DNA of 54,465 nucleotides, the filler included, from Jimgerdemannia flammicorona (lineage: Eukaryota): NCBI GenBank assembly GCA_003990765.1. It is 2 parts of 2 records of this genome, joined end to end, with 100 filler letters (N's around TTAATTAATTAA, not from the genome) between each part and the next. Parts side by side here need not be neighbours in the genome. Positions count along the whole stretch, not along the records: positions 27,285 to 54,465 come from RBNJ01000655.1; 1 more part is not named here. One strand, given 5' to 3'. Under the pieces are notes generated by a model that was given only the letters and a program-made list of their open reading frames with translations, did not search any database and was not told where the DNA came from. The translations under genes and the position numbers were made by a program. Positions within the stretch are counted from its first letter, which is position 1; every line of letters begins with the position of its first letter. Below are positions 17,691 through 54,465 of the stretch, one piece after another.

Positions 17691-17699
17691 AATAGTGTT

Positions 17700-18030
17700 A
17701 GTTTTTATTTTATCTTTTTTATCTTCTTCATCTCTTTTGTCTTTATCTTCTTTATCTTCTTTATCTTCTTTATCTTTTTTATCTTATCTATCTCATCTAC
17801 CTTATCTATCTCATCTATCTTGTCTATCTTATCTGTCTTATTTATCTTATCTATCTTATCTATCTCATTCTCTTGTCTATCTTATCTATTTTGCCTATTT
17901 TGTTCATCTTATCTATCTTATCTATCTTATCTATTTGTCTGTCTTATCTATCTCATTTATCTTATCTATCTCATCAGTCTCATCTATCTTGTCTATCTCA
18001 TCTGTCTCATCTGTCTTATCTATCTTATAT
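17700..18030 (-). repeat. 9-bp-period low-complexity repeat (GATAAGATA-like on the minus strand)
   Basis: TTATCTATC / TCATCTGTC units; also the source of the spurious plus-strand ORFs here. Confidence 0.85.
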
Positions 18031-18479
18031 ATATTCAAAAAGATATTTTAAATTTTAAATTTATTATATTAAAGAAGGATCATTTAATAATAAATATATA
18101 TATATATACATATAATAAAAAGATATATTTGTTTTAATTGACCTTACTATATACCTTTTTGCTTACTTTATTATATATTATTATATATATTATCATATAT
18201 ATATATTATTATATACTTATATAATGAATCATTATAAGTCTCTGGAATTTTCTATAGAAATTTCTATAGAAATTCCTACAGAATTTTCAACTAGCAGTTA
18301 TAGTTACCCAAAGTAATATAACTATATATAGACATACTCAGTATATCATATTTAGTCATAGCCTTGAATATATATAAATACTCTCTATACTGAGTGTGTT
18401 GTAATCTCAGCTCTACTTTTTCTAAATATAAAAATAAAGTAGTATACTTATTATAGAAATCTCTCAGATCTGACTTATT

Positions 18480-23604: not shown

Positions 23605-26600
23605 CACAAGACTTCGACAACACTTTTCACAATGTTTTTGGTATTCAGCAACTATCAATATGGATGGCAATGTTCAAACCGGTGAGCATACTGGCCAGGG
23701 GAGTGCTGGTGCCTTTGGCTGGCAGCAGGTGGGGAGGAGGGGAGATGGTTTGGGGATGCCGGGGGCCTCGATGGCTGGCTGAGGTCCTGGTGGTGGAGGG
23801 AGAGGCAGACTGAGGCAGTGTGGTGGGGAGAGGTCGACCTTCGCTGACAAGGTCAGAATGGGGAAGATGGCCTCAGGCTTGGATGGTTGGCTAGGCTTGG
23901 GGAAGGCATCAACGGCAGCCGCTGGAGGCTTGGGAGGTGTTCCCAGGGGTGTCTCTGGTGGCAGGGGAGGGGCGGGAGTAGGGGCCGGCAATGTGACTGC
24001 TGATGAGGTTGTGACTGGGGATCTGGCAAAAAATCCAGATGTGACGGTGGTTGGTGGTTTGGGTCGAGGAGTGGGCATGAGGCCTGGGGACCTGGTGGAT
24101 GATGTGACAGACATGGTGTTGGCCCCATTACTCAAGAAGTTGAGGTCAGAGTTTGTGGTCATGATGTGCTTCCGGGGCTTGGCGGTGACAGCAAGGATGA
24201 TCTTGGGGCTTGTGGTGCAGGAGGCTAAGGAGGCTGCGTCGGTGAAGTTTTTGAGGGGAAAAGAAGGGGTGGAGGTAGGGTTTGAGGAGGAAGACACCTT
24301 GTTGGCGGCCATGGAGAAGGGGGTGACAGTTGGTGGGATTGTGGTCCCTATGGCCCGGTGCATGCGGTGGAACTCCCGAGTGGTGCAGCTGATAGTTCTG
24401 GATCTCCCCACTGTGTCGAAGGAGCGGACAAGGGAACTAATTGTGGGGGCGATCAAGGAGTATGGCAAGATTGTAGATGTCAGATTCAAGGTCTGGGAGG
24501 GCATGGAGCTTAGGACGGGTAATGTAGATGTCAGGGTGAGGCTGGCTGAGAAGGAGATTATGGAGAAGTTGAGGGACTGGACGGCAGCACTGAGGTGGGG
24601 GCAGGTGGAGTGTAAGGTCACCAGGGTGAAGGGGACCCCAGAGGAGGAGGAAGACCTGTTGGAGGCTCTGGAGGACCTGGAAGGGACAGTGGCAAGAAGG
24701 AGATTGGCCTGGAAGGAGTTTGAGGCCAGGACAGTTGTGGGAGAAGTAGATGAGAAGAGGGTCAGAATAGAGAAGGGGGCCTGGGAAAAGATGCAGGGGA
24801 GGAGGATCCAGAAGGAGTTGTTGGCAAAGTTGGGTGGGGATGGGGCTGGAGGAAGCTCAAGGGAGGGAGTGGCAGGGTTGTGGGAGAGTGCCTGGGCTGA
24901 GGGGGGAGGGTTGGCCCAGGGCGGCAATCGGATTGGAGGTGGGGAGAGGAGGGAGGGCAATTTGGAGGTGGATGCCAAAATGGGTGAGGGTGTGCACCCT
25001 CAGTATAGTGTTCCGGATAGGGCAGAGGGTGAGGAGGAGCTGATGGATGTGCCGGATGAGGAGTGGGATGAGTCAGTGAGGAGGAGCGTACTGGTGGACC
25101 CCGAGGTGGATGGTGGGCAAATCGCCCAGGGGGCGGTGGAGGCAGTGGATGAGGAGAAGTGGATGTAGAAGACCCTGGAAGGGGTGGCAGCTGAAGAGCT
25201 GGGGGGTGAGGACTTTAGAGTGATAGAGGAGAGGTATTGGGAGGAGATTCTACGTAGGGAAGAGGTGCCGAGGAAGATGAGAAATGAGATCCTGGCTGTC
25301 CTCCTGGAGTCTGTTGAGTATCAGGTAGATGATCAGCGGGAGGAGGAGCTTAGAAGGATTGCGAGTGACAGGGCACTTTTCTTGTGGAACTCGAGGAAGG
25401 GACTAGAGAAGTGGCATGCTGTCTGCTTGGATTACAGGGCGGATATGGAGGAGGTGGACAGGGTAGAGTATCAGGAAATCTTGGAGGCACTGGATGCTCA
25501 GGATATTGCAGAGGATGAGTTGGAAGCTGAGCGGTGCTTGGATGTGGCGAGGGATGAGATGAGTATGGAATTATAGGCTGGGGTCTCTTCTACAATATCT
25601 ATTCAATATGAACAATGCAACTAGGATATTCTCATTGAACGTTAATGGATTATAGGGGGTGGCTAGGAGGAAGTTCATCTTTGGTTGACTTCGGGGTTTG
25701 GATGCGGACCTCTTCTTGTTACAGGATGTTTGGTATGATGCAGACGTGGATTTACAGGATTGGACTAGGGAATGGGGGGGTATGGCAGTTTGGAGGGAGA
25801 AAGTGGGTATTCTTGTTCAGAAAGGGATGGGGGACATTGGGGACATTGGACATTGGGGGTCGCAGGTGGTGTGGGGAGTATGGAAGAGGCCTGGATGGGG
25901 CTCGCTGATGGTTGGGTCTTGTTACTGCCCAGCTGAGAGAGGGGAGAGGGTGGATTGGATTCGCGGATTGAAAGAGACTGGTTTATTGGAAGACATTGGG
26001 TTTGACTGTATGGGGGGGGACTTCAACATGGTTCGGGATAAGGAGTTGGACAGAACTAATGGAGAGAGAGGCATGCAAGGGGAAAGTGGTGGATTGGTGG
26101 ACTGGTTGGAGATGGAAAGGCTGTGTTCTTTGGTGGACTCAGGGAGACATTTTTGGGCTGATCGGCAGGTGTATACCCATTGGGCAGCTGGACTGGGCTC
26201 TAGGATTGACTGGGTTCTTACAGCAGAGTATTGGGGGGCAGATGTCTGGATGGTGCTGGGAGTTGTATGGTGTCCATGGTCTGATCACTGGGGGTTGCTT
26301 AGAGGAGAGAGGTTTGGGGGAAATGAGGATAGACCCAGACATTGGCAGCTAAATTCTTCCTTGTTGGAGAATAGGGCATTGTGGGAGGGTTGGGAAAAGG
26401 AGGTGGTTGAAGATATCGGCAGGTGGCGGGATCAAGGACTGGCAATTGGAGACCACTGGAGAAGGTTGAAGGTGAAGGCTCAGGGGTATTGGAGGGAAGT
26501 GGGAAAAGGAAAGAGTGCCCAGTGAAGGCGGCAGGTGATGTGGGCCTCATGGCATCTGGCGGCACTCATGGAAAGATGGGCAGGTGTGCTGGAGAATAGG

Positions 26601-27173
26601 GCCGAGGCTGATTGGTGTATTGCGAGAATCCAGCGGGAGGTGGAGGAGCTCAAGGGGGTGCTACGGAGGGAGGAAGAGGAGCAGCTGCAGGGGATGGTGG
26701 CCCGCTTGTGATGGCAGGGGCTTGAGGAAGGGGAGAGACCTACCAGGTTCTTGTCACAGTTGTTATAAGTACGACAAATGAGGCAGCGGTGGGAAGGAGT
26801 TTTGGACAAGAATGGCGAGCTGGTAGAGGGGACCCCAGCGATTTTGGGCTCATTGCGATCCCAGTGGGGGAACCTTTGGAGCGAGGATGAAGGGGGACTG
26901 GATGCTCTGGACATTGAAAGGCAGCTGGGGGATTGGCACCCGAACCCTGCCTTGGGACTGGCAGCATTGGGGGACCCGGTGAGCGGCGAGGAGATTTGCA
27001 AGGTGGTGGCCTCTACAAGTAAAGGGACAGCCCTGGGAGAGGATGGACTCCCCTGGGATTTTTGGCAGAGGATGACAGGGGTGCGTGAGGTTCTAGGGGA
27101 AATGATTGCTATGTGTGATGAAGTTCTTCGGTCTGGTGCCTGGATTGGGGGACAGCACTTGGGGCTAGTCTCC
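23605..27173 (+). mobile_element. LINE of a related subfamily: ORF1 23660-25576, ORF2 from 25608, broken inside RT
   Basis: ORF1 MDGNVQ... has in-frame TGA/TAG derived from CGA/CAG. ORF2 MNNATRIFSLNVNGL, GGDFN, WSDH, GEDGLPWDFW. Colinear with the 1-5735 copy. Confidence 0.93.
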
Positions 27174-27540
27174 TTTTTTTTTTTNNNNNNNNNNNNNNNN
27201 NNNNNNNNNNNNNNNNNNNNNNNNNNNNTTAATTAATTAANNNNNNNNNNNNNNNNNNNNNNNNNNNNNNNNNNNNNNNNNNNNGTCAGCAGATCCCCCA
27301 CCAGCTCCTCCCACCGTAACACCTTTGCACCTAGCCCCAGCCGCTGCCCCTCCTCAAATACAAAGAGCCAATGGCCTGCCAATCCCACCCATACTGCCAA
27401 CACCCATCCTACAGTGAGCCAACTATCCCCCACCCCACCCACAAGCCGAGATTTTAAGTCCTCCCAGCGACCCCCCTCCCCCACCAGCCGACGCCCAACA
27501 CCCAGTCTATCCCCTATCTCTGCCCAAAAATCCCCCAAGA
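27174..27540 (-). mobile_element. LINE 3' fragment spanning the gap
   Basis: T-run at 27174-27184; 27284-27540 matches 125-380. Confidence 0.75.
27185..27283. other. Scaffold gap with artificial TTAATTAATTAA linker
   Basis: N-runs flank a six-frame stop linker. Confidence 0.95.
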
Positions 27541-30500
27541 CTCAGATACCCCACACCAATCCTACCAATCTCACCAATAGAACCTTTACCACAACCTCTT
27601 GCAGAGTTGGAAATAGCTCCTATAAGAATACCTAGGCCTATTCCACTTCATCCAAGATCCAGAACACCATCCTCAGGATACCCAAGCATCCCTATCTCTA
27701 GTGATAGTTCAGAAAGTGAATCAGAATCAGAATCTGAACTTGAACTAGAATCAGAAGAAAGTGATGACAAAATGGCCACCTTATTGCCAATCTTTGCAGG
27801 ATACCCAGAGGAAGACTCCAGAGAATTCCTTGATGGAATTGAAGGAATCACAGTCTTGAGAAATCTCTCAGATGAAAGAAAAATCACCATCTACAAAGCT
27901 CAGCTCAGAGAACTAGTCAGAGGAATTTTCCATCAAACAGCAAACAACTGAGATTCAGAACTAGTAAGACAGATACAAGCAGCAATGTCTGATGAGCTAG
28001 AATATAGGGCCATGGTCCACTGGCTTATTGAAAAGTATGCAGGAAATGAAACCCACCACAAGGCTCAAGAATCCATCATGGGGATGAAGATGAATCTTAG
28101 AGAGTCACCCAGAGCCTTCTTCACAAGAATACAGAAGAGAATGCATGCTGCTGGGTTCAATGCCACCAATCAGGACATCATCAGTCCAATGACCTTCATG
28201 AATAGAATTCCCCCAAACATTGCCCAGCATGTTCGCACTCTGGGTATCAGAAGGTCTAAAGAGCAAGTAGATATAGTCTAAGGATTCTTTAATATCAGAC
28301 AAGGAACTACTTGGAGTGATTATGATAAGAAAGAAGATAAAGAAGACATTCTGGTCAAAGCCCTACAAGGACTCCTTCAAGGACAAGAAAGATCTGAAGA
28401 AAGAAGGCCAGCCAAGGAAGGAAAGAAGGATAGAAGTAAAATCCAAGACCTTAGCTCCAAGTTGGACCAATTGGTTGAACAGATATACATGAAAATTGGA
28501 GCTATCAAGACAATAGAGGATACCCACTACAGAGGAGCCAAAGTTATCCACTAAGAGATAACAGGAATTACCAACAAGAAAAAAGAAGGTACCCTGTTTG
28601 AGACAGAGCCCAAGTCCAATGCTTCCACTGTAGACAATTTGGACACTATGCCACTGAATGCAACAACAAAAGAAGTGACTGAAGGGACTCAGAACCACCA
28701 AACTGAAGGAATGACACTCAGTACAAGAAGACTGAAGCCCATCCTGTTGAAGATTTCGAAGAAGTAAGTAACAGTGAAGACTACAGTAATCTAGACTTGT
28801 ACTCCACTAAGGTTATAATTCAGAAAACAGTCTATCTAGCAGAGAAAAGAAAGAGACCTGTAGGGAGACCATTCAGAAATATCAGCAGAAGAATTATCCA
28901 AGAAGAGGATGAAGAACATGAGGAGAAATAAGTAGAAACACCTCCCTGAACCCCCTCACCTTTTGTCCCTGAGACAAATGAGTTGCTACCAAAAGATGAA
29001 GAAATGGAACAAGAAGAATGGGAACCTGCTGCTCCAAAGCCTAAGAAGAAGTACACTCTGAAGACCATATCTAGGGACATTTACAATGAAGTCTGGCAGA
29101 AGATTCAAGAAGTCAAGATGGAAGTCCCTCTCTTGCAATTCTTGTAACTGACACCAGCTGAAGTCTGAAACAAATTACTGAGAACCACCAGGTCTAGCAC
29201 TGGCTGAGTTCCAATCCTACAGCAAGAACCAGCTTCCATCTCTGTCCAAGCAACTGAAAGATATGTCAGTACCTACTTATATGGAGATATTGGAAGACAA
29301 AAAGTGAAAATACTCATAGACACAGGAGCAGCTGTCTGTGTCATTGCCAAATGATTCTTGGACACCCTCCAATGGCCCATTGATGGACCATCCAACTTCA
29401 GTATCATAGTAGCAGATGGAGTCTGAACTCAACCCCTTGGAGAAGTATGAAATATTACCATCTCTCTTAGACACATTCAGTTCTCTATCCCCAAAGCTGT
29501 TGTCACTGAAGCTGTCACCTATGACATGATTCTTGGCACCAACTGGATGAAGGAAATGAATGCAGTTGTTGATATCAGCCAACAAGTACTCAAGTTTGAT
29601 TACCAAGGCAAGAAGTATAGGGTTAAGGTGACCAGCTATGAGCAATCAAAGAAGAAGAAGAAGGTCACTATTCAGGAAGAGTATGCCAGTAGTGAAGAAT
29701 CCACTACAGAAGAAGAAGAAGAATCTGAAGATGGAAATGATCCCAGACTCAATCCTCGAATCAATCTGGTAGATGACCAACCAGAAGATAATGTGTAGAC
29801 CAAGAACACTATCCCTATTACCATTGGAGCTATTGCAGGAGAAGCCAAAGGATGCCCTATATGCCTCAAGAGACATAAGTATCCTGAGCACTCCTCCAAG
29901 ATCATAGGAACAAGGAAATCACCTGGCACAGCCTGCCCAGAGTACAGAAGGAAGAAGAAGAAATGCAGATATATTTCAGAAATACCTGCAACTGAAGCTG
30001 TAGAAGTATAAGCAATTTGGGGTCAAGAATCATCCAAGGAAGAAGAAACTTCTGACCAAGAAGTTCCTGAACAAGAAGCATCTGATGAAGAAGAGGTCCT
30101 CGAACTCATTCTCTGGGATGACCCTCACTGGACACCACCTGAAGACAATGACCCTTGGAATACAGAAGAAGGACCCAGTACAATTACCATTATCCCCAAG
30201 AAAGAAACCCACCAAGAGAAAGCTTTTCAGCTAGGAAGATGTCTACACCAAATAGTCTTCCACTCTCCCTGAGACTACTGCTATCAGTGTCATCTGTTAG
30301 ATCAACAAGAAAGACAGAGACCCCAGAGACCAGAACCCCCAACTACCCTTACACAGTCTACCATCTTTCAAGAAGTCACCACAAGGTTACAAAGTCAATT
30401 TAGGGGACAAGACTTCTTCACCCAAACAGAAATATATCCCTTATCTACCTTTCCCCCAACCTATGATTAAGATGAGTACTGATTCCCAAGACAACAAGAG

Positions 30501-30944
30501 ATAAATAGCCAGGAATATCACTTTCAGACAATGGAATATTGCAATCATGGGAGACATCCTGACTGCCAAGACTGCAGACATCAGAAGATTCACCTCAGTC
30601 ATGATGTTACAGTGCACACTTTGAAGAAAGGAGATAACCAAAGTCAGATCCGAAAAAGCCAGATTCAAAAAAGCCAGACCAAGAAGCCCAGGAAAAGAAT
30701 CCTCAAGATCTATGATTTGGGAGAAGACATCCTAGCTCTTATCAGACATGCAACCTGTCAAGGATAGACAGAAGATACCACCAACTTCATGGAAGCCCTT
30801 GACCCTACAGGAAGGAGGGGAATCAACTACCTCCAAGACTCCTCTACTAGAACCAGATGGCCACACCTCAACCTTAGAGCTTAGAGGCTTTCCACTAGTG
30901 GAGCTTCAGCCTTAGAAAAGCCCAAACTCAGCAAGGATATTGCC

Positions 30945-31345
30945 CAGTATACCCTGATACACCCCAAGGCCAAACCCCCAACCAAAGCCCACCCAGAGGA
31001 TATAGGATATGTATGATCTTCACAGCCTGGAGGATGAATCTATCAAGTCTGGAAAAACCTTCATAATCAGAACCAGATTAGCCATGCAGCTACCCCAAGG
31101 AGCTTATATCCAACTGACCTCAAGGTCCAGACTTGCCAGACAAGGAATAATAGTGGAAGGAGGAACCATTGACCCAGGATATATAGGCAAAATCAAGGTT
31201 ATCTTATACAACAGCAGTACAGAATGGCACCGAATCATTAGAGGACAGAAGATTGCCCAAGCAGTCTTCATGAAGGTCAAGACCCCACAATTACAGGAAG
31301 TCTCTGAACTAACTGAAGGAACAAGACAAGCCAAGGGATTTGGAA
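30945..31345 (+). pseudogene. Trimeric-type dUTPase domain in gypsy A Pol
   Basis: YDLHS, SRSRLA, GTIDPGYIGKIKVILYN, QKIAQ, RQAKGFGSS correspond to motifs I-V. Confidence 0.92.
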
Positions 31346-34238
31346 GTTCAGACAGAAAGGAGGTACATCTCCTTCAAGTCAACCACCTCAAGAGGAATGT
31401 TCCCCAGCAAGTGTATCAGCAACCAGTCAGACTGCACAAGAATCTCATCCTGGAGCCTGGAGAACAAACTACCTTCGAAATCTTTGCACCACCTGACCCC
31501 AGAAACCTTTTCTTTAAACCTAAGGAAGATATCCTACACCTGGACATATAGGGACACACATTCCCTGACAAGATGAACTCAGTATACTCCTGAGCAACCA
31601 ACCAAAGTTGGGAGACCATCATCTTGCCAAAAGGAATCATCATAGGACATCTGGTGTCTTTTCTCAACTGAACTTATAGGGAAGTTTATGAACTAAATCT
31701 ATCAGGAAATGGCAAAAGGTCCCAGAAGAAAATAAAGGCCCCTCTGCGACCCAGGAGACAGTAAAGCCTTCTACCAACATTGAAGAAGAATTGACACCTC
31801 AACAATAACAACAACTAGTAGAACTTCTCAACAAATATCAAGATATCTTCACCACTGATTATAGCAATCTACCATACAATCCATCATATCACCACAGTAT
31901 AAATATAGGAAATACAACACCCATCTAGCAGAAACCCTATAGAATACCCCATCACTTGAAAATATTCAAAAAAGAGCACATCTAAGAACTCTTAGACAAT
32001 GGAGTCATCTGACCCTCTACCAACCCCTGGGCCAGCCCTATACTTATTGTACCAAAGAAAGGAGGATGGAGACTCTGCATGGATTACAGGAAACTCAATT
32101 CAGTCACTGAAAAGGATGCCTATCCTCTGCCCAGAATCAATGACCTCTTGGATCAGTTACAAGATACCAGATACTTCAGCAGTATGGATCTCTTTGCAGG
32201 ATTCCATAAGATTTCCATGGACCCTAAGGACATTCAAAAGACAGCCTTCCTTGCTCTAGGAAAACTGTTTGAATATCTCTGAATGCCCTTTGGACTCTAT
32301 AATGCACCCCCCACCTTTCAGAGGATGATAAATTCAGTTTATGCCCCCTTGATCTACCACTGCCTAATTGTATACATAGACAATTCCAACATCTATTCAG
32401 CAAATTTCAAAGAATACCTACACTATCTAGAGGAATTCTTCAAACTCACCCACAAGAACCACTTGAGACTGAATGCAAAGAAATACTACTTTGGAAAACA
32501 GAAACTTGAATTCCTTGGATTCATAGTTTTGAAAGAAAGAACCCATGCAGACCCAAAGAAAACCAAGAAGATTGACAATTGGCCAGTACCCAAAACCCCG
32601 AAGGAGACACTATCATTTCTGATGCTAGTATCCTACTACAGAAGGTTTATCAAGAACTTTGCTCAAATCACTGCCCCAATCTGGATCCTTCTCAAGAAAG
32701 AAGTACCATTCAAATGGACAGAATCACAAGGAAAAGCCTTCAAAGAACTCAAAAACTGCATGACTATAGTACTAATCCTTGTGCACCCCAATTTATAGAA
32801 GCCATTCATCTTGTATATAGATGTCTCTAAAGATGGCCTTGGAGCAGTTCTAGCCCAAGGAGGATCCAATCAATAGTACCATATAATAGCTTATGCAAGC
32901 AGAGCTATCAATCAGTAGCAGATGAACTATGGTAGCACCAAACTGGAATGCCTTGCAGTCATATGGGTGGTCACCCTGTTCAAGCATTACCTCATTGGAA
33001 AAAAGTTCACCCTGATCACAGACCATGCAGCCCTCAAATGGTTATTCAACCACAAGAAACCCATAAGAATCCTAGCCTGCTGGATCCTTATCCTTCAGGA
33101 TTACAAAATTACCATTATCTACAAAGCAGGGAAAGCTCATAACAATATTGATATACTTTCTCATCAGCTCCAATGAATCAGAAGAAGGGTGTCCTGAGGA
33201 ACTACACCCTAAAGGAAACTCCTCAGACCATCAAGGTACAAGAAGATCTCATCTATAAAGAATATCAGAAACCCATCAAGGACAGATAAGTATAGAAGAC
33301 AAGATCTAAAAACTGTACCAATACTGGCCTCACCTCAGAACCCAAGTCTGAGACATTATCCAGAAATGTGACACTTACCAGAAGTACCAAGGAAAGAAGA
33401 ACTATCAAACCCCTTTGCAACTGATTCCCTCACTCACTCATATCTTTCAGAGATGGGGAGTAGATGTAATTGGACCTCTACCAGTTACACTAAGAAGAAA
33501 TAAATATATCCTTATATTTGTAGAACATCTGACCAAGTGGCCTGAGGCTTTCCCAATGGAAATTGCAGATGCCTTAACCATTGTAGGCCTCCTCCATGGA
33601 CTCACACTCAGATATGGACCCCCAAAAGAACTCATCTCTGACCGAGACATGGAATTCATCAACAACATAATCACAAGTTATGCCTGAATTCACAAGATCC
33701 ACCTCAAAAGGACCACATCATACTATCCCCAGACCAATGGCATGACAGAGAGAATGAACCAGACCATCAAGAAAGGACTTTCCCAAGTCAATTCTACTAA
33801 TTGGGACCTCTGCTTACCTGAGATTCTATAGGAAATTCAGAACACCTCTGCTGCCTCCACCAAACAAAAGCCATTCGAAATGATGTTTGCCAAGAGAACC
33901 AGAACTGCTGACTATGAGAATCTTGGAGACCTCCTCAAGAAGGCAGAACAGTTATGAAATCAAGCCCAAGGACAGATTATCAAAGCCCAAGAAAGACAAA
34001 AGAAGTACTATAATCAAAAACAGAAGGATCAGGAGATCAAGATTGGAGATCAAGTATGTACTAGTTTGGAGAAGTATAATTGAAATGAATTTTGCTGCCA
34101 AACTGGAATCCAAATGGGAAGAACCTTATCTTATATACAATATCAGAGAAACTAGCATCTATTTAAGAAGCATGGATAGATGAACCCTGAGAACACTAGT
34201 ACACATCAATTGTCTCAAGATATACCTCTTCTCACACC

Positions 34239-34737
34239 ATGAACTAGAGAATTGACAACTGTCTCCAAACTCTTATCCTCAGTTCCCTCCAAGCCCTATC
34301 AGTTCCCCTGTCTCAGTTCCAGGAACACATCTTCAGAAAATCTGAGTTCATTAAGAAAACCTCACTTTGGCTGAGAGGCTACTTCAGGTCCACCAGCTGC
34401 AGGCATACTATGCAATTGGAGAATAACTGCAGAATCTTCCTCTCCCAGACCTAGCCTATGTCCATAACACCACTGGCCTGAATAGAAGAAATACTACTGC
34501 TGCAGACAGACTATATACAATTACAAACAAAACCCCTCTGCCTTAATCCAGGCCCAGTTCTCCCTGAATGACCTCCAGAGAATGACACTGCCTACCTACC
34601 TCAGCATCATTCACTAAGTCAAAATCCTATTTCCCAAGAAAGAGGAACCCCTGAAATGGAGTGACCATAGCTCAGATGATGATGATGGAACAGGTATAGA
34701 TACAGAAGCTGCTTATGCCTATTGAGATGATGACTGA
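34239..34737 (+). pseudogene. Extra ORF (ORF3) downstream of integrase, family A
   Basis: ATG overlaps the integrase end. With two frameshifts it reads ...QAYYAIGE*L...TGLNRRNTTAADRLYTIYKQNPSAL...SLNDLQRM..., then an acidic tail. Confidence 0.65.
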
Positions 34738-34776
34738 AGAATAGTCTGGGACAGACTACCCTTCAGTGGGGACTGA

Positions 34777-35224
34777 TGTAACAGACCAAATATACCACCT
34801 GAATTATAACTTAGCCAGATAACATGAACAATTAGCATACTTACTCAGCATGATGTAACTTCCAGTATATCATAGTCACCCATGCCCACCACACTTATAA
34901 TTAGCCAAGACACCAGATCAGGATTATTTACCTGTATCCTGAGGACACACTCATGTCCTGCAGACACACTTATGTCCTGTGGACACACTCATGTCCTGTG
35001 GATACACCTGTACCTAGAGGATACACTCAAGCATTACCAGAAGTAGTAAATCTATAGTTAGCTACATAGTAACCAGATAGCAACCAACTTGTATAAATTA
35101 CCCCAGAGATAAGAGCAAATAAACCTCAGTCTGAAATATAAACACCAAAGAAGTCTCTAAAGATTGAGTATTGGTCCCCTTTCCACTCTGGTCCACTTTC
35201 TAATATAAAGAAGAGTTTGTTATA
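34777..35224 (+). repeat. LTR of gypsy family A, with PPT upstream and PBS-like site plus leader downstream
   Basis: TGTAAC...TGTTATA. Internal ~20-bp GGACACACTCATGTCCTG repeats; TATAAA at ~35092; AATAAA at ~35118. Confidence 0.85.
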
Positions 35225-36170
35225 TTTTTGATTCACTTGCCAGATAAGCCTGAAGATTTGCTGCCTAAGTTCAAGGAGAACTTCGCTGCCTTTTGAAGAG
35301 AAATCCACCGCTTAAGGAATAAGCCATGCTATTGGTATGCTTGCTAGATAAGCCTGAAGAACCCAAGTTTTCACTGTCATTCTTGCTATAAGCCAGTCTT
35401 TCTGATGCAACTTCACAGTAGAGCCAGTCTACGATATAACTCCATGCAAATGAAGCCAATCTTTGACATAACTTGCCAAGAATCCTAGTTAATTTCCAGT
35501 TGAAGCTGCCAATTCAGGAGAATCCGCATCATCTGCCATTTTCAAGTTAACCACCATATTCTCAGTTGAAGCTGCTGATTCAGGAAGAATCTGCACCATC
35601 ATATTCCCAGAAGAACCCGATTCAGAAGAACTCATGCCATTTAAGTAGTATTCCCAGAGAGCTCGCCAATTCAGGAGAATCTGCATCATCTGCCATCCTT
35701 GAGTTATCTGTATTCCCAGAGAATCTTGCCAAATCTGCGACATCTGAATTGTTTGTTCCCAGTGAGCTCATTTCAGAAGAATCCACTGCTAGTATCATTC
35801 CCAGTGAACCCATGCCCAAATTGAGTTATCTGCCAAATTATCAGAATGTCCTGTATAAAGAACCCACCACACTATACAGAGATCACCCACCATCCAAGAA
35901 GGAAACTGCTTGTGCTATATACAAATCCTATCATTCCTAGTTAACCTAAATAAGAAAACCACTCATACTATACAAGATCATCATACAGAAATCACATAAA
36001 GAGAACCACTAAATTGCCAGACCATTATGCACAAGGAGATCATCATGCTATACAAAGAAATCAACTACTACTTAAGAAGGAAACCTATTCACAAATTGCC
36101 ACTATACCCAGAAGAACCGTCCCAATTAGGAAATCAATACACAAATTACTTACAGATATCCAGCTTTGAC
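35225..36170 (+). mobile_element. Family A 5' leader of a second, tandem unit (truncated)
   Basis: Aligns to the reverse complement of 12400-13105. Contains GCCAATTCAGGAGAATCYGCATCATCTGCC repeats. Confidence 0.8.
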
Positions 36171-36855: not shown

Positions 36856-40652
<3,797 letters not shown>

Positions 40653-43145: not shown

Positions 43146-43930
43146 CTAAGTACTAGATCTCTTTATTAACTAATTTATAATAAATATAAAATTGTCATAC
43201 TATATCAGTAGCCTCAATCTACCCTTACTTCTCTCTACTCTATCTCAATATACTTTCTCTCTAACTAACTATTTTAAACTAAATATACTAATAATTACTA
43301 AGCTATTTATAATTATAAGCTATCTAAATACTCAGAGATGGTATTATTATTATTAATATCATTATTATAGATATTATCCTATAGATAGATATTTAGAAAA
43401 AATGGTTTAGAAACTATTTTTTTCATTCTTATTTATAAAGATATATATAGATTAAAATCTAAGATGATCTCATTAGTTGACTTCTTTGATAATATATACT
43501 AAATATAATATTTATAATCTAAGTATTAGAGTATTAGAAAGAAATTCTTCATCAGATTCACTATTTGTATATTTTAATAAATTATAGTATTATGAGTTAC
43601 TGGATTATAATTACTGAGAGTATTAGATAGATAATATATACTAGTAATAATATCTATAAATTATTCTCTTGAAGAATAATCTGAGTATATATATATATTA
43701 TATTTGCTAGTTTTTATATTGAAGTTAAAGTAGTTGAAATTAAATTATAGTTATATAATATACTATTTATTAGTTTTTTCTATGATAAGTTTATATATAA
43801 TAATAAGTTACTCAAAGTTAAATAGTAGAGATAGTCTCCAATAAGTTGATTTGAATCAAATCTGAATTTAATTTATTATATAACAGTTTGACCTGAATCT
43901 TAAATACAAAATAATTCAAATTAACTTAAA
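42130..43930. repeat. Extremely AT/TpA-rich degenerate repeat relic, family unidentified
   Basis: CpG nearly absent, TpA excess, sharp boundary with unique DNA. Confidence 0.55.
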
Positions 43931-43934
43931 TTAA

Positions 43935-44110
43935 TCTAAATTACTCAATCTGAATTACTCAATTTAAATTACTTAATCCAAATTACTCAATCTAAATCAC
44001 TTAATCTAAACCACTCAATCTGAACTACTTAATCTGAATTACTCAATCTGAATCATTCAATCTGAATTATCCAATTTAAATTCTTCAATCTAAATTCTTT
44101 AATCTGAATT
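43935..44110 (+). repeat. 15-bp tandem repeat (AATYACTCAATCTGA-like, ~11 copies)
   Basis: Direct periodicity; unit length is a multiple of 3. Confidence 0.85.
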
Positions 44111-45020
44111 AGTCAGGATCTAGAACACTTTGTCCTCAACTATCAGAAGCTCATTAAAAGAGCCTACCAGTCTATCAGCTACTTAGAGATCTGATATAAA
44201 TATAAAATTAATTATTATATCTGCCAATACTATTATAGCCTCACTATAGACCAAATTTCTATCTGGACTAGTCTGAATAGATATGAATAGAGACTTGCTA
44301 AGAAGATCTATCAAATTTTCTAATATACTTCTTATATAATCTCCAATCTCAACTTTATATGAATCTCAGATATTCAGAATCTCTTCTATTCTGAAGTAAA
44401 TGAACTGGAAGTAAGAATAGCTATTGAGATCTACTTCTGAATCCCTCTTAAGACTAAAAACTATAAATCTCATTAAAGCTTCATACTAAATAACAACTCT
44501 AACTAATAGATTAAAGATCTCTCTGATCTATTTAAAGGACAATATATATATATATATATATATCTCAAGAAATAAAAATCAAGTTCCTTATATAGATAGT
44601 ATCAACTATATCAGATAGTGATCTCTAACCTCTTTCCAAATAATCTCAGATTAGTAAGAGAACTCCACAACTCTGGACTAGTAAGAACTATTTATAAATC
44701 TTATTGATTTTTCTACTCTTGATATTGATACTCCTACTGATCTATATACTAACTAGAGAGATACTGATAATGAGGGTAAGAATGATATCATTTCTCTAAT
44801 CCTTAACTTCAAGATAGGTAAAACAGAAATTAATATAGATGTTAATTTCTAAGAAGAGAGAAATATAATAATAATTATATCATAATATACTATAAATAAT
44901 AATCATATAATCTAATGAGTGAAAGATACATAAATGAAATAAATAAGATAAATATAAAATAAAATACCAAACCCTCTGAACACTAGAGTCTATATCAGTA
45001 CTATTGTAACTATATTATTT
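44111..45020 (+). mobile_element. 3' relic of another gypsy element: ORF3 homologue, PPT-like tract, decayed LTR
   Basis: YKIN..I...TSLNRYE*RLAKKIYQIF...ISDIQNL. Purine tract AAGAAGAGAGAA at ~44850 followed by TATAAT (decayed TGTAAC). Confidence 0.5.
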
Positions 45021-46638: not shown

Positions 46639-46931
46639 TCTGAGTTTCTTAGTAATAAACTCTAAGTTACTCTAATATTTCTAACTAAACTTCAGAAGCC
46701 TAGCTAACTTCTATCAAAATTAAGAATTAATATATATATAAATTAAAAAAAAAAAATTCTTTAAAACTGAATTATAAAAGATTCAGTCTGTGTATAGTAA
46801 GAATAAGTCCCTTATAACTATAGTTACCAAAGAAGAGTAATACTTTATTTCTACTATAAAGAAATAATACTTCTTTAATCTTAGTAAATACTACTAAGTA
46901 AAAGAACAATTAAAAAGACTTCTTAATATAT

Positions 46932-47389
46932 TGTAACAGTATAGCCAGATTCAGAAAAAGGAAATAGAGAACAGACACTTAATCATACCCAGTCCCAAAG
47001 TAGTATAGCCACATAGTTAGCAGTCCCCAATTTTGCCATTTGCTAAATATTTCACAAAGTGCAAGATCGAGTTTCTCGATATAGTATAGCATTTCACAAC
47101 TGGCAAAATATTTTGCAAAGTATTAATGACTCATAACCTAGCCACATAACTCATCTCATAGCTAGCAAACTTGTATAAATAACCCAGTATCTTCGAGTGA
47201 ATAAACCTCAGATCGAAATAGTTTAAAACAAAGAGATAGCAAAGGAACTAGTAAGCCTGTGGGCAGATACACTTTGAACTCACCCACTCTCCTCTGCAAC
47301 TCAAAGGACTCTGAGGAGTCAGAGAAGATCAAGTTTTCAAGATATAGAAATCCGATATACTTTTAAGAGTAAGCATCCACTATGTTACA
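46932..47389 (+). repeat. 5' LTR of family B
   Basis: TGTAAC...GTTACA; ~92% identical to 52219-52677. Confidence 0.95.
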
Positions 47390-50300
47390 ACTTGGTGCCT
47401 ATTGGCTGGTGATTCAAGACGAATCCCTCACTTTCAAGCTGAACAATGAACAACCACCACTACTTGAACAACCACACAAACCAAGCCCCAATACTCAGAA
47501 AAGATGGATATGAGACCACCAGTATTCCATGGATATACTTCAGATGAATCAATCATCATCTTCATTGATGATTTCGAGCAGTATACCACTGTAAGGACCC
47601 TGACAGCAGCACAGCAAGTAGCCCTCATGTCCTTCAGCCTACAAGGTCCTGCCAGAGCAGCATTCACAGCCGCAACCTATGTAGGAAATGATGCCGATGC
47701 TATACTGACAGTACAAAAGACCTAGCTCTGAAATATATATTATACAGATGAGATCAAGCAAGCCCTGAAGGATCAGCTCAATACAACATGCCAAGGAATG
47801 AGCGAGGATCCAAATATATTCTATACTAGAATTCAATATCAGATAATCCTTGCAGATTATGCTGCTGCTATCCGAGATCAAGTAGCCGAAGCAATCTTCA
47901 TGAAAGGAGTCCATCCAGAAATAGCCATGGCTATCTGCTTATCACCAGTAATTCTGGATCTACCACAAAAGGTCACCTATGCTCAGCAATACTGAATAGC
48001 CAGACACCCACAAGACTATACAATGGAGAGAGTTATACATAGGAGTCAGAATCGAGGCACCTAAGTCAACCAGTGTGATTCCCACCACTATGATCAATCG
48101 AAACACACCTCAGCCCAAAGCTACAGAGCAGCAAAAGAACAGTGACCCTATGGAGGAACTCACCAAAAGGTTTGCTGAAATGACTGCCCACCTAGGAGAT
48201 GTGGTAAAGGAAATTCAAGGAAGAGATCGCTGCCCTGTTCAGAAGTTTGCTGCCACTTCAGACAAGAAGAAAGGTACCTGCTATAGCTGTGGAGAAGAAG
48301 GCCACTACTCCTATGAATGCATGAGTGAAACCAAGCACAAGGCTCAACCAAGCAATGCTACATGAAACAAGGAGCAGGCCAATACAATCACTTTTAAAGA
48401 AATCAGAGAATCTGATGAAGAGGAATGGGCAGCCTATCTTGCTCAGACTACCAAGAAGGATGTTTGCAAAGAACCCTACAAGAGACTGCCAGGAAGACCC
48501 AAGAAGAACCCAGTGGAAAAGTAGATGGAAACTGCTATAGAAAGCCAAGCCGAAGAGATGGACCAAGATATGGAGCTGGAGCAAGCAGTTCAAGATATCA
48601 TCCGAGGGACTACTCTAGCCAGTAAAGGAGAAAAAGAAAAGAAGCTTTGCAAGACCAAGACCTTCAAGTATGATATCTTCAAGGACCTCAGTCAGCAAAA
48701 GGTCAATGCAACCTTTGGTCAGCTTGCAGAAATCCCAACATTTAGATAGCAAATGAGGTTTGGACTTGCCAAAACAACTAAGGAATAAGAATGGAAGATA
48801 ACTGAGGCCAATAATATTCAAGAGGACTCAGGAGAAGAAAGTAAGGACAATCACAAAATCTCTGCTTATGCAACATGCCAAATCGAAGATAGAATCTTTG
48901 AAGCCATCATTGATATAGGAGCAGGAGGATGTCTCCTCAGCAAGAAGGCAGCAGACCACCTAGGTTGGGATGTGGAAGAAGCAACTAAGCTGGTGTTCAT
49001 CACAGCCGATGGCACAAGAGCCACACCTCTGGGAAAGATCCGAGATGTTCCCATCAAGATTGGAGGAGCAACCATCCCAGTAGATGTAATTGTAACCAAT
49101 GCCACTAACTATGACATCCTCATTAGCAATCAATGGCTTCATAAAGCCAAGGCAGTAATCGATCTCAATGCCCAGAAGATGCAGATCACCTACCGGGGAC
49201 AGAAGATATGAATTTCCATCAATGTCAATAAAGGAGTCCTGCCTGATATGGAGGAAGAAAAGAGCAAGCAAGAAGAAGCTTATATGGTGACTACTCCAAA
49301 GAAGAAGAAAGTTGGATAGATAAGTAAAGAAGAATGGTGCAAGAAGATCACAGAAGGTTATGCCCCACAAGGAGTCTGTTCTCATGGAATCAAGATGTAA
49401 TGTATAGAGCATGTCAATGATTGCTAGAAAGCTCAACATGGTTACCAAAAAGGATCGCCAACTACTGCCTCTTATCAATAATATCCTCATAACACTGGGA
49501 GACAAAGTACAGTATTACAGCACTTTGGACTTATACTCAGGATTCCACCAAATCAGACTCATAGATATGGCAAGTAAAAAGTCAGCTTTTATCACCCCAG
49601 ATGGAACCTACATCTACCTATGAATGCCATTTGGAATGTGCAATGCACCAGCAAGTTTCCAGCGAATGATGAACAAAATCTTCCACTATAATATGGGAAG
49701 ATAGATGATAGTCTATGTTGATGATGTAATCATCTACAGCCAGACACCAGAAGAACACCTGTAGCACATCTGGTAGATAATAGAAAGACTGAGAAAGCAT
49801 GGCCTATACATCAAGCCCAAAAAATGCAAATTCACAGAAATCGAGATCTCCTATCTTAGCCACATCATCAACTGAGATGGAACACACATGGACCCCCTCA
49901 AGATACAAGCAGTGGCAGTATACCCAAGACCCACTACTGTTACAGAAGCCCAAGCCTTCATGGGACTTGCCTCCTATTATCGCAGATTTATTAGAGGATT
50001 TTCTAATATTGTGGGACCAATCTATGAACTTAACAAGAAGGATACCAAGTTCCAGTGGACTGGCAGACAACAAAAAGCATTTGATGAACTCAAGGTCAGA
50101 CTGACCCAGGCACCCATCCTCAGAAGACCTGACTGGACTTAAGAATTCATCCTACAGACTGATGCAAGTGCACAAGGACTAGGAGCAGTCCTAGCTCAAA
50201 AGAAAGATAAAGTAGAGTATGTCATCACATACCTCAGCCACGGAACCCGAGGAGCTGAAAAAGAATATGAATCCTACAAGTTGGAATGCCTCACAGTCAT

Positions 50301-51719
50301 CTAGGCTGTAGAAAAGTTCCACTACTACTTGGCTGGAAGACACTTCACCATCCAAATGGACCACTTAGCTCTCACCTGGCTACTGACAATCAGACAATCC
50401 AAAGGAATCTATGCCAGATGGATAATGAAGTTGTAAGCTTATGATGTAACCATTGTACACTACTCTGGAAGAACCGATGCCAATGCAGATGCTCTCTCGC
50501 AGACACCCCGAACTACCTTCAACCAACAAATCAATTATGAATAAGGAGCTCTACTATGGAATTATCACATATCTGGGACAGCGAAAGATGCCCCAACATC
50601 TGGAAGAATGGACACAAAAGATTATCAATAGAACATGGAAATAATTCGAAACTGATGGAGAAATACTGAAGAAAGGAAAACTACTAGTCATACCAGAATA
50701 CAAGAAGGAGCAAGTGATGAAATCAGTACACGAACTTGGCCATCTAGGAGGAACGAATACATATGACAAGGCAAGAAGAACAATATGGTGGCCAGAGATG
50801 GAGGAAGATATCAGGCAATTCATCAAGACCTGTGACAAATGCCAGAAACAGAAACAAGACCAATGAAATCAAGCTCCAGGATCAGTACACATAGAACCAG
50901 TACCATTTGCCCATATTGTAATGGATATAATCAGCCCTCTACCCTTGACTTTGGCTGGCAACCGATACATCATTGTCACCATAGACCTTTTTACAAAATG
51001 GATAGAAGCAGGACCCCTTATGGAAGCCAATGTATAGTCAATTGCCAATTTCTTCCACAAAGAAATCATCTGCTGGTTCAAGACCCCAACACAAGTAACT
51101 ACAGATAGAGGAACGGAATTTGTGAACTAGTTCTTTGAAGTTCTTTATAAGAAGTATAAGATCCAGCATATTCAGACCACAGCATATCACCCTCAAGGAA
51201 ACGGACAAGTAGAAAGGACCAACAAAACCCTCAAGAACGTTATTGCCAAGATCTGCAATAACTATGAGAACTGGGATCACTATCTGCCAATAGTATTATC
51301 TGCTCTCTGGGATATCTGATCACAAAGTACCCACTTTACCCCTCGAGAAATGCTGTTCAGAGAAGAATGTTCTCAGGGAACCTTATCATCCAATAGAGAT
51401 ACTGTATGGAAACATATGGATATAGAAATATGGAGGCTATACCAAATCAGGAAGAAGGCTGAGGATTACATAACCAAGGTGCAGACACTACAATGGAGGA
51501 ATGCGGAAAAGACCCACAAACTCTTAGAGATTATCAAGATAGGAGATAAAGTCCTAGTGTATTAGAATATGGTAGAAGCTTCATGGTCATGAAAACTGGA
51601 GCCCAAGTAGGAAGGATCTTATCTTGTGCAAGATATAAAAGGGACCACCTTTTGGCTATAAAAACCCTCAGGCACAATAATCTCCACCACCATTCACTGA
51701 AACTGACTCAAGAAATATC

Positions 51720-52196
51720 ATGGCCAGTAACAAAAGTACTGTGATGGTACTCAAGATCACTAGTGCTGCCCAAAGAGCCATTGAGAGACAATGGTGCACC
51801 ACCAAGCCTCCAACCATAGAGGAGTCTTATGACAGTATCCAAAGCATCATGCAGACTCATCTCTCTCAGATCTCACACTTCAAGACCTATCAGCATCAAA
51901 ACGAATTCCAAGAGTACTTCAAACTTGGCCAAGTACTCAACCAAGACCCAGAAATGACCAAAGAAAATTGGATCACAGAATGCCAGCTCTCCTATTCCCA
52001 GATCACCATTGCTAAGAGAATCCACAAGCTATTCTGAGAGGATGAACCAGCACTAGCCCACCTGTGAGGAGTGACTCCCTCAGACTTCAACCGAGTCAGA
52101 TGACACCATTGGGAAACAGTAATGTAACAAATCGCACAATACAAGACCATACAGACCATTGAAGCCTGGGAGTTTGAATAGATGCTTCAAGGATAA
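51720..52196 (+). pseudogene. Extra ORF (ORF3) downstream of integrase, family B
   Basis: ATG overlaps the integrase end. The frame continues through TGA/TAA/TAG codons explainable as CGA/CAA/CAG decay. Confidence 0.7.
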
Positions 52197-52218
52197 GATC
52201 ATCTATTCAGGAGGAAGT

Positions 52219-52677
52219 TGTGATGGTATAGCCAGATTTGGAAGAAGGAAATAGGGAATAGACACTTGATCACACCCAGTCCCAAAGTAGTATAGCCACA
52301 TAGTTAGCAGTCCCTGATTTTGTTATTTGCTAAATATTTCACAAAGTGCAAGATCGAGCTTCTCAATATAGTATAGCATTTTGCAACTGGCAAAATATTT
52401 TGCAAAGTATTAAATGACTCATAACCTAGCCACATAACTCATCTCATAGCTAGCAAACTTATATAAATAACCCAGTATCTTTGAGTAAATAAACCTCAGA
52501 TCGAAATAGTTCAAAGCAAAGAGATAGCAAAGGAACTAGTAAGCCTGTGGGCAGATACACTTCGAACTCACCCACCCTCTCCTGCAACTCAAAGGACTCT
52601 GAGGAGTCAGAGAAGATCAAGTTTTCAAGATACAGAAATCCGACGTACTTTTAAGAGTAAGCATCTGCTACATTACA
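52219..52677 (+). repeat. 3' LTR of family B
   Basis: TGTGAT...ATTACA; direct repeat of 46932-47389. Confidence 0.95.
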
Positions 52678-53255
52678 ATATATATATATTAAGTTTCTAA
52701 ATAATATCTTATTATCCAAGTTATCTAAAGATATAAAGGAATTGAAATAAGTATTATTAAACTAAGTATTTTTATCCTCTAAGAGAGTAATATTACTTTT
52801 ATTATTAGTATAAAAGTATTTTTTTAATTAAAATTATAGATATTCTATTAATAGTAAACCTAATACTAGTTACTTATATAAATATTACTTATATAAATAT
52901 TATTTATATAGTAAATATATTATTATTAATATATATTAATTTAATTACTATCAAACTTTACTTAATTATACTTTTGATCTCTTTCATCTTATTAGTCTTA
53001 TTGATCTTATTGATCTTATTTGACCTTATTGATCTTATTTATTATATTAACTTTTTAATTTCATTTTATTATTAATCTTATTTATTATTAATATAAGTTT
53101 TAAAAGACTTTCTCTTTATTATAATTATTCTACTATCTAAGTAGACTTCTTTATTATTATACATAATTATCTCTACTATTTTGATAAGTTTTTTTTTTTT
53201 TATATTAATTATACTTATAGTAATAAAAATATTATTATAGTAATTACTATTATTC

Positions 53256-54465
53256 AGGGCAGGTGTCAATCCTGAATGTATATTGGTTTCCCAAGCTATG
53301 GTATGTGGTATATCACCTTGACTTCCCAGTGTGGGTGGTGAAGAAGCTGACAAAGGTGGCTAGGGATTGGATTTGGGCAGGGAGGAGGTCCCAGGTTAGT
53401 TGGGATACTCTTGCAAGACCAGTAGTCAGGAGAGGCCTTGGCCTGGTGGACTTCCCTAAGAGGCTGCACTGCTTGTGAGCTTGGTGATTGAGGAGAGCAG
53501 TAGACCTACAGAGAGGAGGTTGGGTGCCTCTGCTACAGAAGGTGTGGGAGATGTGAACATCCCCTTGAGGGTCCTCCGGAGATCTGCTCTCTTTGGTGGG
53601 ATTGGATGGAATTTAGAGGCTACAGTTCAAGGGCTTCTGGTGGGGAGTGGCTGATGGAGCGCACCAAATTGGCCTGTGCTGGCAAGACAATGAGGAGGAG
53701 GTGGTATGGGGGCCTAATATGTGGCATTGGGATAGACTGCTCCTGGGGGGTGCTCTGCTGGCTATGTTTGATATTGGGGAGGGAGTGGAGTGTCAGCAGG
53801 GGCTTGGCCAGGATCTTTGGCTGAGTGGCTGGCAGGCAGCAGAGATCGGCAAGGAGTGGGACTGGGCAGGTATCTGGTCTTGGAGTGCAGAGGTACAGAG
53901 GTGGCTTCCTCCCAAGTTCTGGGTGGTATAGTGGAGAATGTTGCAGAGGAATGTTATGCTGAATTTCCACACAGGGCATTTGGTAGAGGGTGGACAATTC
54001 AAATTTGAGGAGTGTTATGATGTGGGGCGAGCTGAGGGTCATGTACAGATGTCAGAACATTGGCTGAGAGAGTGTGAGGTTTTAGGGGAATTTTGGGCTG
54101 AAATAGGAGATAGACTGGGTGTGGGGAGGAGGCTGGGGGGGGAGGGTGGTCACTGGGTGGACTTGAGATCTCGACTTGTGGGTGGGGTAGGTGATAGTTA
54201 GCTCACTGTAAGGTAGGTATTAGCAGTATGGGTGGGACTGGCAGGACATTGGCTTTTTGTATTTGAGGAGGGATAGTGGTTGGGGCTGCGGGAGAAGGTG
54301 TTAAGGTGGGAGGGGCTATTGGGGGATCTGCTGACTGGATGGTGGGTGGGTTGGGGTCCTCAGGGGAGTCGACATCACCATTTGGTGGTAAGGATCTGTG
54401 AGCAGAGTGGTGGGAGAGTAGTGATGGTGTTAGATAAAGTAGTCTTTTATTGGGAAGGGGTAGGG
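53256..54465 (+). mobile_element. 5'-truncated LINE (ORF2 C-terminal region), runs off the window end
   Basis: Closely matches the reverse complement of 1-1197. Confidence 0.93.

Follow-up and report, generated by a model that had tools for sequence, protein, structure and literature searches.

A third gene follows integrase in two families of Ty3/gypsy retrotransposons from Jimgerdemannia flammicorona

Introduction

Gag and pol are commonly regarded as all that a long terminal repeat (LTR) retrotransposon needs. We describe here a third open reading frame, hereafter ORF3, that begins within the end of integrase in two families of Ty3/gypsy elements of the fungus Jimgerdemannia flammicorona. 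Both families lie in a window of 54,465 nt that joins 2 records of assembly GCA_003990765.1 (positions 27,285–54,465 are RBNJ01000655.1), and coordinates below count along this whole stretch unless another contig is named. Family A is the one with ORF3 at 34239–34737, and family B the one with ORF3 starting at 51720. An earlier note, made from the DNA alone, had proposed that each family carries an unnamed ORF of about 150 residues encoding a helical accessory protein.

The integrase of chromoviruses is extended in frame by a chromodomain, which has the β-rich chromo fold. According to passages of PMC2864245, this domain sits directly 3' of the integrase C-terminal module as an accessory to the gypsy core, a placement that ORF3 shares. 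ORF3 differs from it in lying in the +1 frame with its own ATG, in being predicted all-helical and in giving no match to Chromo. The ORFs captured by the LTR retrotransposons of bdelloid rotifers have recognisable enzymatic or env-like domains, unlike ORF3. These elements, from another host group, resemble those described here in having ORFs beyond gag and pol (sections of PMC5408684). Errantiviruses (gypsy, ZAM) and the Athila elements of plants provide a further comparison (PMC2864245, PMC13524379). Their env-like third ORFs also lie between pol and the 3' LTR and often overlap the end of pol; they encode membrane glycoprotein-like proteins with hydrophobic segments, whereas the ORF3 protein has a maximum hydropathy of 1.36 and only 153–183 residues.

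In fungi, the legend of Figure 3 in PMC2864245 (Novikova, Smyshlyaev & Blinov 2010) marks an 'add. ORF' of unknown function in some full-length Gypsy elements, which, going by that legend, resembles ORF3 as an extra ORF without assigned function in fungal Ty3/gypsy elements. Passages of the same paper place a dUTPase between protease and reverse transcriptase (RT) in the Postia placenta element PosPlaTy3-5, an architectural likeness to the elements here (window family A and L001, a related metagenome contig), and record published elements of this type for Basidiomycota and Tuber. The elements treated in those passages bear chromodomains, whereas those described here have none. The literature searched, which included PMC2864245 apart from its figure and structural table, holds no description of the ORF3 protein beyond the generic 'add. 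ORF', and the portions of Muszewska et al. 2011 (PMC3248453) within the search mention no such ORF. The ORF3 protein family is undescribed, within the known category of LTR-retrotransposon accessory ORFs.

Results

ORF3 in family B

The family B element of the window has the following features.

46931–52678, plus strand: element B, an LTR retrotransposon bounded by an LTR pair
46931–47390, plus strand: 5' LTR of element B, 92% identical to 52218–52678
51350–51763, plus strand: C-terminal part of the family B integrase in the pol frame, with its native stop TAG at 51761–51763; same arrangement in L001
51720–52181, plus strand: family B ORF3 of 153 codons and its natural TAG; identity to the intact relative P0001, 79%
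52209–52217, plus strand: purine run, the polypurine tract (PPT) of element B, abutting the 3' LTR and conserved in L001
52218–52678, plus strand: 3' LTR of element B, 92% identical to 46931–47390

From its ATG at 51720, where the earlier note had placed the start, ORF3 is open for 105 codons and is then interrupted by TGA, TGA, TGA and TAA at codons 106, 116, 128 and 136. Intact relatives have R/K, R, R and Q/T at these codons (R, R, R and Q in P0001, an intact B protein of 153 residues), and the natural stop of the family is TAG 52179–52181; the end first proposed, 52196, lies 15 nt beyond it, at the next stop. A search of 5.8 billion proteins gave 10 family B relatives at the cut-off of E ≤ 0.01 among 13 candidates, with identities of 63–79%. 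L001, a metagenome contig of 6479 bp, is a nearly intact family B relative with 72–77% DNA identity to window B, and its ORF3, at 5795–6256 of the contig, is intact and encodes 153 residues. In both DNA copies ORF3 is in the +1 frame relative to pol, the pol-frame TAG comes 44 nt after the ORF3 ATG, and the ORF3 frame has a stop 18 codons upstream of this ATG; the pol frame of the window copy additionally carries a premature TAA at 51728–51730. ORF3 ends about 30 nt before the purine run, and because that run abuts the 3' LTR, ORF3 lies between integrase and the PPT, the position originally assigned to it.

ORF3 in family A

The corresponding features of family A are as follows.

31009–31551, plus strand: dUTPase domain in family A pol (PF00692, E 7e-24), which marks the clade
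33974–34255, plus strand: C-terminal part of the family A integrase in the pol frame, with the putative stop TGA at 34253–34255
34239–34737, plus strand: ORF3 of family A, in three frames with in-frame stops; intact relatives P0013, P0014, P0017 and P0018

The window copy is spread over three frames (34239–34325, about 34322–34537, and 34522–34737), and its two frameshifts and its stops make it a dead copy. Intact relatives of 169–183 residues start with MNQRID at the window ATG 34239 and end in ...YWDDD at the window stop 34735–34737; the three-frame patchwork protein read earlier from this copy is correct. Relatives numbered 4 among 5 candidates in the first search and then 14 among 1189 in a profile search. 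They are 46–88% identical to P0013 (self-match excluded) and form two subfamilies that are about 54–58% identical to each other. As in family B, the ORF3 ATG is in the +1 frame relative to pol; it precedes the pol-frame TGA 34253–34255, the putative native stop in this single DNA copy, by 17 nt. Both families thus have the proposed third ORF with its ATG over the integrase end, at an intact length of 153 residues in B and 169–183 in A, and natural intact copies keep the frame open.

Searches for further DNA copies found none in viral contigs (A and B profiles) or genome contigs (A profile), and one metagenome locus, L001. The known family members all derive from JGI/IMG and ENA assemblies, where automatic gene callers predicted them on short metagenome contigs; they bear the name 'hypothetical protein' or none, and 0 of the 10 clusters looked up for their source came from NCBI or UniRef.

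Purifying selection on ORF3

The window B copy was compared with L001, one DNA pair of which one partner is decayed. The two ORF3s differ at 132 of 459 positions, distributed 32, 25 and 75 over the three codon positions (chi-square against an even spread about 33, 2 degrees of freedom). In the ORF3 frame, the proportions of nonsynonymous and synonymous differences (pN and pS) are 0.177 and 0.692, and the ratio of the corresponding rates (dN/dS) is 0.105. The same stretch read in the other two frames gives pN of 0.286 and 0.312, pS of 0.244 and 0.225, and dN/dS of 1.23 and 1.51. As controls from the same pair, RT–RNase H yields pN 0.144, pS 0.669 and dN/dS 0.095, the integrase C-terminus 0.102, 0.531 and 0.119, and gag pN 0.159 and pS 0.762, a saturated value from which dN/dS is not computable. 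Within the 44-nt pol/ORF3 overlap of family B, the ORF3 frame is better conserved than the pol frame. In family A, frames of 169–183 codons remain open over about 50% protein divergence. ORF3 is a genuine third gene, on which purifying selection in family B equals in strength that on RT and integrase; the accessory gene that had been suspected is real.

These comparisons bear directly on the possibility that ORF3 is untranslated, its conservation reflecting a cis-acting RNA or DNA element beside the PPT and its database frames being artefacts of gene callers. The origin of all members in automatic calls on short metagenome contigs would suit this explanation, as would the fact that both window copies are broken. 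It is countered by the accumulation of differences at third codon positions, by an in-frame dN/dS that equals those of RT and integrase against 1.2–1.5 in the other two frames, by frames of 153–183 codons that stay open at about 50% protein divergence, and by the lack of excess RNA structure at the junction. An untranslated ORF3 is therefore extremely improbable and close to refuted.

Relationship of the A and B proteins

P0023, whose C-terminal half is out of frame, was excluded from all alignments; P0015 and P0016 are absent from alignment A4 and present in the other, scripted ones, and the cluster members P0026–P0037 stayed outside the alignments, P0032 and P0036 being inspected singly. Profile–profile alignment of A and B by hhalign gave a score of 27.0–27.5 (P 0.001) over 46–53 columns, in the register of the motif that had been noticed between the two proteins, a nominally significant match with a probability of only 20–21%. 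None of 202 shuffles of the columns of the A alignment, scored in the same way, reached the observed score (mean 11.65, sd 2.98, maximum 20.1), and the reversed-alignment controls scored 9.6 and 10.5. We also scanned all six-frame pieces of the window and L001 with both profiles. The best non-self matches of the A profile were the ORF3s of L001 (E 6.4e-4) and of window B (E 0.041), that is, exactly the two B ORF3s in the correct frame, the next match standing at E 1.3. MAFFT alignment of 23 sequences placed A and B in the same register across most of their length, hmmsearch gave the same register, and the helices predicted by AlphaFold2 correspond between the families. The shared motif therefore holds in all three alignment methods. 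Derivation of ORF3 from gag or another part of the element was considered and rejected, as neither profile matched gag or pol pieces in the six-frame scan (best E 2.6).

In addition, the A and B ORF3s have in common their position, +1 frame, start context, size, helix order and Trp-acidic end. Because the pol genes of A and B are homologous throughout, a shared ancestral ORF3 is the simpler history. The alternative is that the two ORF3s are unrelated, having arisen or been captured independently at a permissive site between integrase and the PPT, with the motif a chance likeness of helical sequences. Such an origin would be in keeping with the low hhalign probability, with an identity of only 13–21% in the joint alignment and with an acidic tail of 35 residues that is found in A and not in B. 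Moreover, the B profile is blind to A: its HMMER search of 1.84 billion representative proteins returned 3 matches, all from family B and none from A, and the local six-frame scan with it also missed family A. When P0001 was compared by BLASTP with one of the three frames of the broken window A copy, the match was not significant either (E 0.56). However, independent origin leaves unexplained why 0 of 202 shuffles and 0 of 2 reversed controls reach the observed score, why the A profile finds the B ORF3s first, and why placement, frame, start, length, helix order and terminus are alike. We consider it rather improbable, and take the A and B proteins to be quite likely homologous, albeit weakly supported as such. 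The identities of 17–21% in ORF3 and 42% in RT–RNase H weakly suggest that the ORF3 proteins diverge faster than pol. The lineage-wide distribution first suggested stands only for two families with 42% RT–RNase H identity and for the two A subfamilies.

Features of the ORF3 protein

The protein has no named domain, as the earlier note had stated. Among 23 ORF3 members, none reached any Pfam-A family cut-off and none gave a Chromo match at E ≤ 1, which also agrees with the view that ORF3 is not a chromodomain. The nearest approach to a Pfam family was HTH_Tnp_Mu_2 in 2 members (E 0.031 and 0.11), which at 14.8 bits falls short of its cut-off of 20.5 and was dismissed as noise. PDB sequences gave no relative (best E 0.18, to a designed protein). 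With low-confidence models as queries, Foldseek gave 0 matches against pdb at E ≤ 0.001, and VIA-align reached a best Z of 5.7, to designed helical proteins, which is below the noise level for helical models. A search of the ESM Atlas with P0001 retrieved only unnamed prokaryotic or viral clusters at 0.92–0.95 and was uninformative. No characterised domain was matched in these searches. A hydrophobic segment was found in none of 5 proteins, whose maximum 19-residue Kyte–Doolittle means are 0.19–1.36; with this and its 153–183 residues, ORF3 is not env-like in the errantivirus or Athila sense, which bears out the initial assessment.

AlphaFold2 models of the protein are all-helical, in line with the helicity expected for it, and weak, with a mean predicted local distance difference test (pLDDT) of 52.5 for B and 57.9 for A; in the A model, core residues 30–100 reach about 66–82, and the tail is disordered. 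An all-helical fold is thus supported but weakly so. A two-copy prediction for residues 1–136 of the family A protein P0013 scored 0.59 (runs 0.59, 0.60 and 0.59), compared with 0.01 for the best of 3 controls. In calibration, the mark used for calling a dimer was reached by 21 of 30 solved one-chain pairs and by 0 of 23 solved single chains; among eukaryotic proteins 17 of 29 attained it, but only 1 of 7 lacking an older solved relative. At least 97% of contacts are common to the runs, with a partner pLDDT of at least 78. Specifically, the predicted interface covers residues 30–84, including the first part of the motif shared by A and B, and has its two-fold axis at residue 52, where the long helix would pair with its counterpart in antiparallel fashion together with the next helix. 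These predictions give weak support to a symmetric homodimer.

EAWEFE forms the C-terminus of all 5 family B sequences that extend that far. Family A has AY.[YH]W followed by D/N residues in all 7 proteins reaching the end, 6 of which stop there and 1 of which reads on; the window A copy has a stop at the codon of the C-terminal Trp. Judged from sequence, this Trp-acidic C-terminus of both families looks like a short docking motif.

Host elements and their decay

The elements that carry ORF3 are Ty3/gypsy (Metaviridae) LTR retrotransposons, in which LTRs flank gag, protease, RT, RNase H and integrase in this order. L001 encodes, in sequence, zf-CCHC, aspartyl protease (residues 387–498), dUTPase (PF00692, E 3e-28, residues 625–752), RVT_1 (869–1034), RT_RNaseH, Integrase_H2C2 and rve. 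Element A, at about 27561–35500, has the same layout, and the window A and B copies match L001 pol along its length. Identity between A and L001 is 41.7% over 458 residues of RT–RNase H, 30–34% in integrase and about 26% in gag–protease. No Chromo domain was matched at E ≤ 0.001 in the integrase pieces of L001 or in the integrase C-terminus of window A. The clade therefore has gag with a CCHC knuckle, protease, dUTPase, RT, RNase H and integrase without a chromodomain, and is not a chromovirus clade.

Window B lacks about 310 codons of the L001 gag-pol (residues 576–886, comprising the dUTPase and the RT N-terminus), with the junction at 49424–49426; it is an internally deleted, non-autonomous dead copy. 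All 34 of the 34 substitutions between the LTRs of element B are transitions. Many database relatives of ORF3 carry W, C, Y or H where others carry R. The all-transition LTR differences and these replacements of R point to C-to-T deamination-type decay after insertion, either methylation-driven or similar to repeat-induced point mutation (RIP).

For element A, the PPT and the LTR start were not located; a run of N lies on its 5' side at about 27190–27285, and its 5' LTR is outside the window. A second, partial family A copy occupies 7894–11909 and 12919–13291 on the minus strand; it is 80% identical, runs from gag to dUTPase, includes part of the upstream LTR and stops short of ORF3. Weak plus-strand matches to L001 at 20496–20933 (dUTPase, 28%) and 22860–23333 (RT, 23%) mark what is left of a third gypsy-like element, a more distant one, and the six-frame profile scan gave no ORF3 match near them. 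In L001, positions 6400–6479 hold 18-nt tandem units within the LTR of that contig.

Candidate routes of ORF3 expression

ORF3 begins with ATG in 3 of 3 DNA copies, with A at −3 in each (contexts atcATGG, accATGG and accATGA). Its AUG lies about 5 kb into the element RNA, and ribosomes must therefore arrive there otherwise than by scanning. The downstream start stands near the upstream stop, as in termination–reinitiation gene pairs, with the ATG 44 nt before the pol stop in B and 17 nt before the putative one in A. Known genes of this kind are calicivirus VP2, influenza B BM2, respiratory syncytial virus M2-2 and the coat protein/RNA-dependent RNA polymerase pair (CP/RdRp) of fungal victoriviruses, in which the downstream AUG overlaps or just precedes the upstream stop. 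Termination–reinitiation in RNA viruses needs defined upstream RNA motifs or structures, and an overlap of 44 nt is at the long end of the range. ORF3 differs from these genes in that the 150 nt around the pol/ORF3 junction fold no more than shuffled sequences (z-scores 0.86, −0.73 and 0.21); a search for rRNA motifs was not made.

We propose that ORF3 would be made as a separate protein in small amounts. The route given the best odds, short of an even chance, is restart: after terminating at the pol stop, ribosomes would resume at the AUG lying shortly upstream. The overlap of the AUG and the +1 frame fits it, and would also suit the translational coupling to pol suggested in the earlier note; it would fit equally a subgenomic RNA with its start or acceptor in the end of pol. 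Transcription of such an RNA from an internal promoter is possible, at slightly lower odds. Splicing is the least probable of the routes considered, and decidedly doubtful. By eye, neither the leader alignment nor the sequence upstream of the ATG showed a canonical 5' splice site that is conserved; no systematic scan was run.

A different product would result if ORF3 were a C-terminal extension of integrase, made by programmed +1 frameshifting in the overlap as a minor fusion in place of a chromodomain. Frameshifting by +1 is employed by Ty1 and Ty3. With respect to pol, ORF3 stands in the +1 frame in A and B alike, and it occupies the place where chromoviruses have their chromodomain in elements that here have none. 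In the A copies P0016, P0018 and P0019, moreover, the ORF3 frame extends open for 20–41 codons before the usual Met, across the end of integrase, and P0019 has Ile at the Met position itself. Against this, the ATG with A at −3 is kept in all three DNA copies, the ORF3-frame stop 18 codons upstream in B leaves only about 100 nt for a shift, the overlap region has no stable RNA structure, and no known slippery heptamer was recognised by eye, again without a systematic scan. Fusion to integrase by frameshifting is thus unlikely, and we keep to a separate ORF3 protein as the working proposal.

Surroundings

Two LINE-like (long interspersed nuclear element-like, non-LTR) retrotransposon copies lie at 185–5300 on the minus strand and at 23700–27232 on the plus strand, each with a long RT ORF (RVT_1 E 1e-25), a GC content of 52–57% and a very strong GC skew, about −0.5 and +0.5. 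Related pieces of 257 nt occur at 126–382, 21409–21665, 27285–27541 and 54079–54335. The only non-repeat gene noticed is a multi-exon host gene at 37377–40382 on the minus strand, encoding a DEAH-type RNA helicase (Helicase_C, HA2_N). Tandem arrays rich in AT, with repeat periods of 9 and 14 nt, are present at 17694–18071 and 43903–44143, within stretches of 15–25% GC.

Discussion

The best explanation overall, to which we assign a probability of about 0.7, is that ORF3 is a genuine third gene of a Ty3/gypsy clade and that it encodes a small helical, dimeric protein, homologous between A and B, for which we infer a role in the element cycle. Several points weigh against this explanation. Selection in B is read from a single pair with one decayed partner and with synonymous sites near saturation (pS 0.69), and family A has no dN/dS and no established native pol stop because no second A DNA copy was found. 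The probability of the profile–profile match is low, the B profile does not detect A, either among database representatives or locally, and BLASTP between the families is not significant. The monomer models are of low confidence, while the dimer score is the model's own confidence in itself and its calibration is weak for eukaryotic proteins without solved relatives. As for restart, the junction shows no RNA structure beyond that of shuffles, and a backward restart over 44 nt is longer than in textbook cases. Finally, the role proposed below is drawn from position and composition only.

In the role that we favour, the ORF3 protein would act as a dimeric adaptor in the element's own life cycle. 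It would dock on a host protein through its C-terminal Trp-acidic end, and would work with the integrase/cDNA complex, for example in tethering or import. Partnership with that complex is favoured because ORF3 sits where chromoviruses carry their chromodomain. A regulatory role, with the activator-like acidic tail of A, and a role in counter-defence may be comparably probable, and any single biochemical role would be held at low odds at best.

The composition of the protein bears on the regulatory role in particular. In family A the helical part is basic (pI, isoelectric point, 9.3–10.3) and is followed by a disordered tail of about 35 residues with a pI of about 4, rich in D/E and W/Y. ORF3 could accordingly be pictured as a retrovirus-style regulator expressed from its own subgenomic RNA, through an internal promoter or splicing, and acting as a transcriptional activator or RNA-handling factor, with the basic helical dimer as the part that binds nucleic acid and the acidic aromatic tail as activation domain, by analogy with foamy-virus Tas. 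The predicted dimer and the 3'-proximal position of ORF3 are in keeping with this picture. Retroviral accessory genes are 3'-proximal, and a 3' gene overlapping pol is common when it is expressed from spliced RNA. However, family B is near neutral, with a helical part of pI 7.9 and an acidic end of only 6 residues, no DNA- or RNA-binding family was detected in the Pfam and PDB sequence searches, and inspection of the leader alignment by eye revealed no canonical 5' splice site that is conserved. A spliced ORF3 RNA would also require an intron of about 5 kb, a length unusual for a fungus. The regulator, with all these details, is therefore conceivable but on balance unlikely, and the suggestion in the earlier note of nucleic-acid binding or anti-silencing receives no direct support. 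The dimeric adaptor remains our favoured role.

ORF3 is a third gene in two families with only 42% RT identity, and its constraint, measured in B, equals that of reverse transcriptase. With such constraint, the element lineage depends on an unnamed function. The gene escapes domain-based annotation of transposons, being present only in unannotated metagenome gene calls. It raises the questions of how a 3'-proximal, overlapping ORF is translated from a 6-kb fungal retroelement RNA, and of what replaces the chromodomain in this clade. It also asks whether fungal retroelements have accessory or counter-defence genes as retroviruses do. More speculatively, and with a small chance of being right, ORF3 might found an undescribed family of dimeric retrotransposon adaptors, made by restart, through which a chromodomain-less fungal gypsy clade would steer integration or counter the genome defence of its host (RIP-like deamination or silencing); if so, ORF3 would be a fungal counterpart of retroviral accessory genes.

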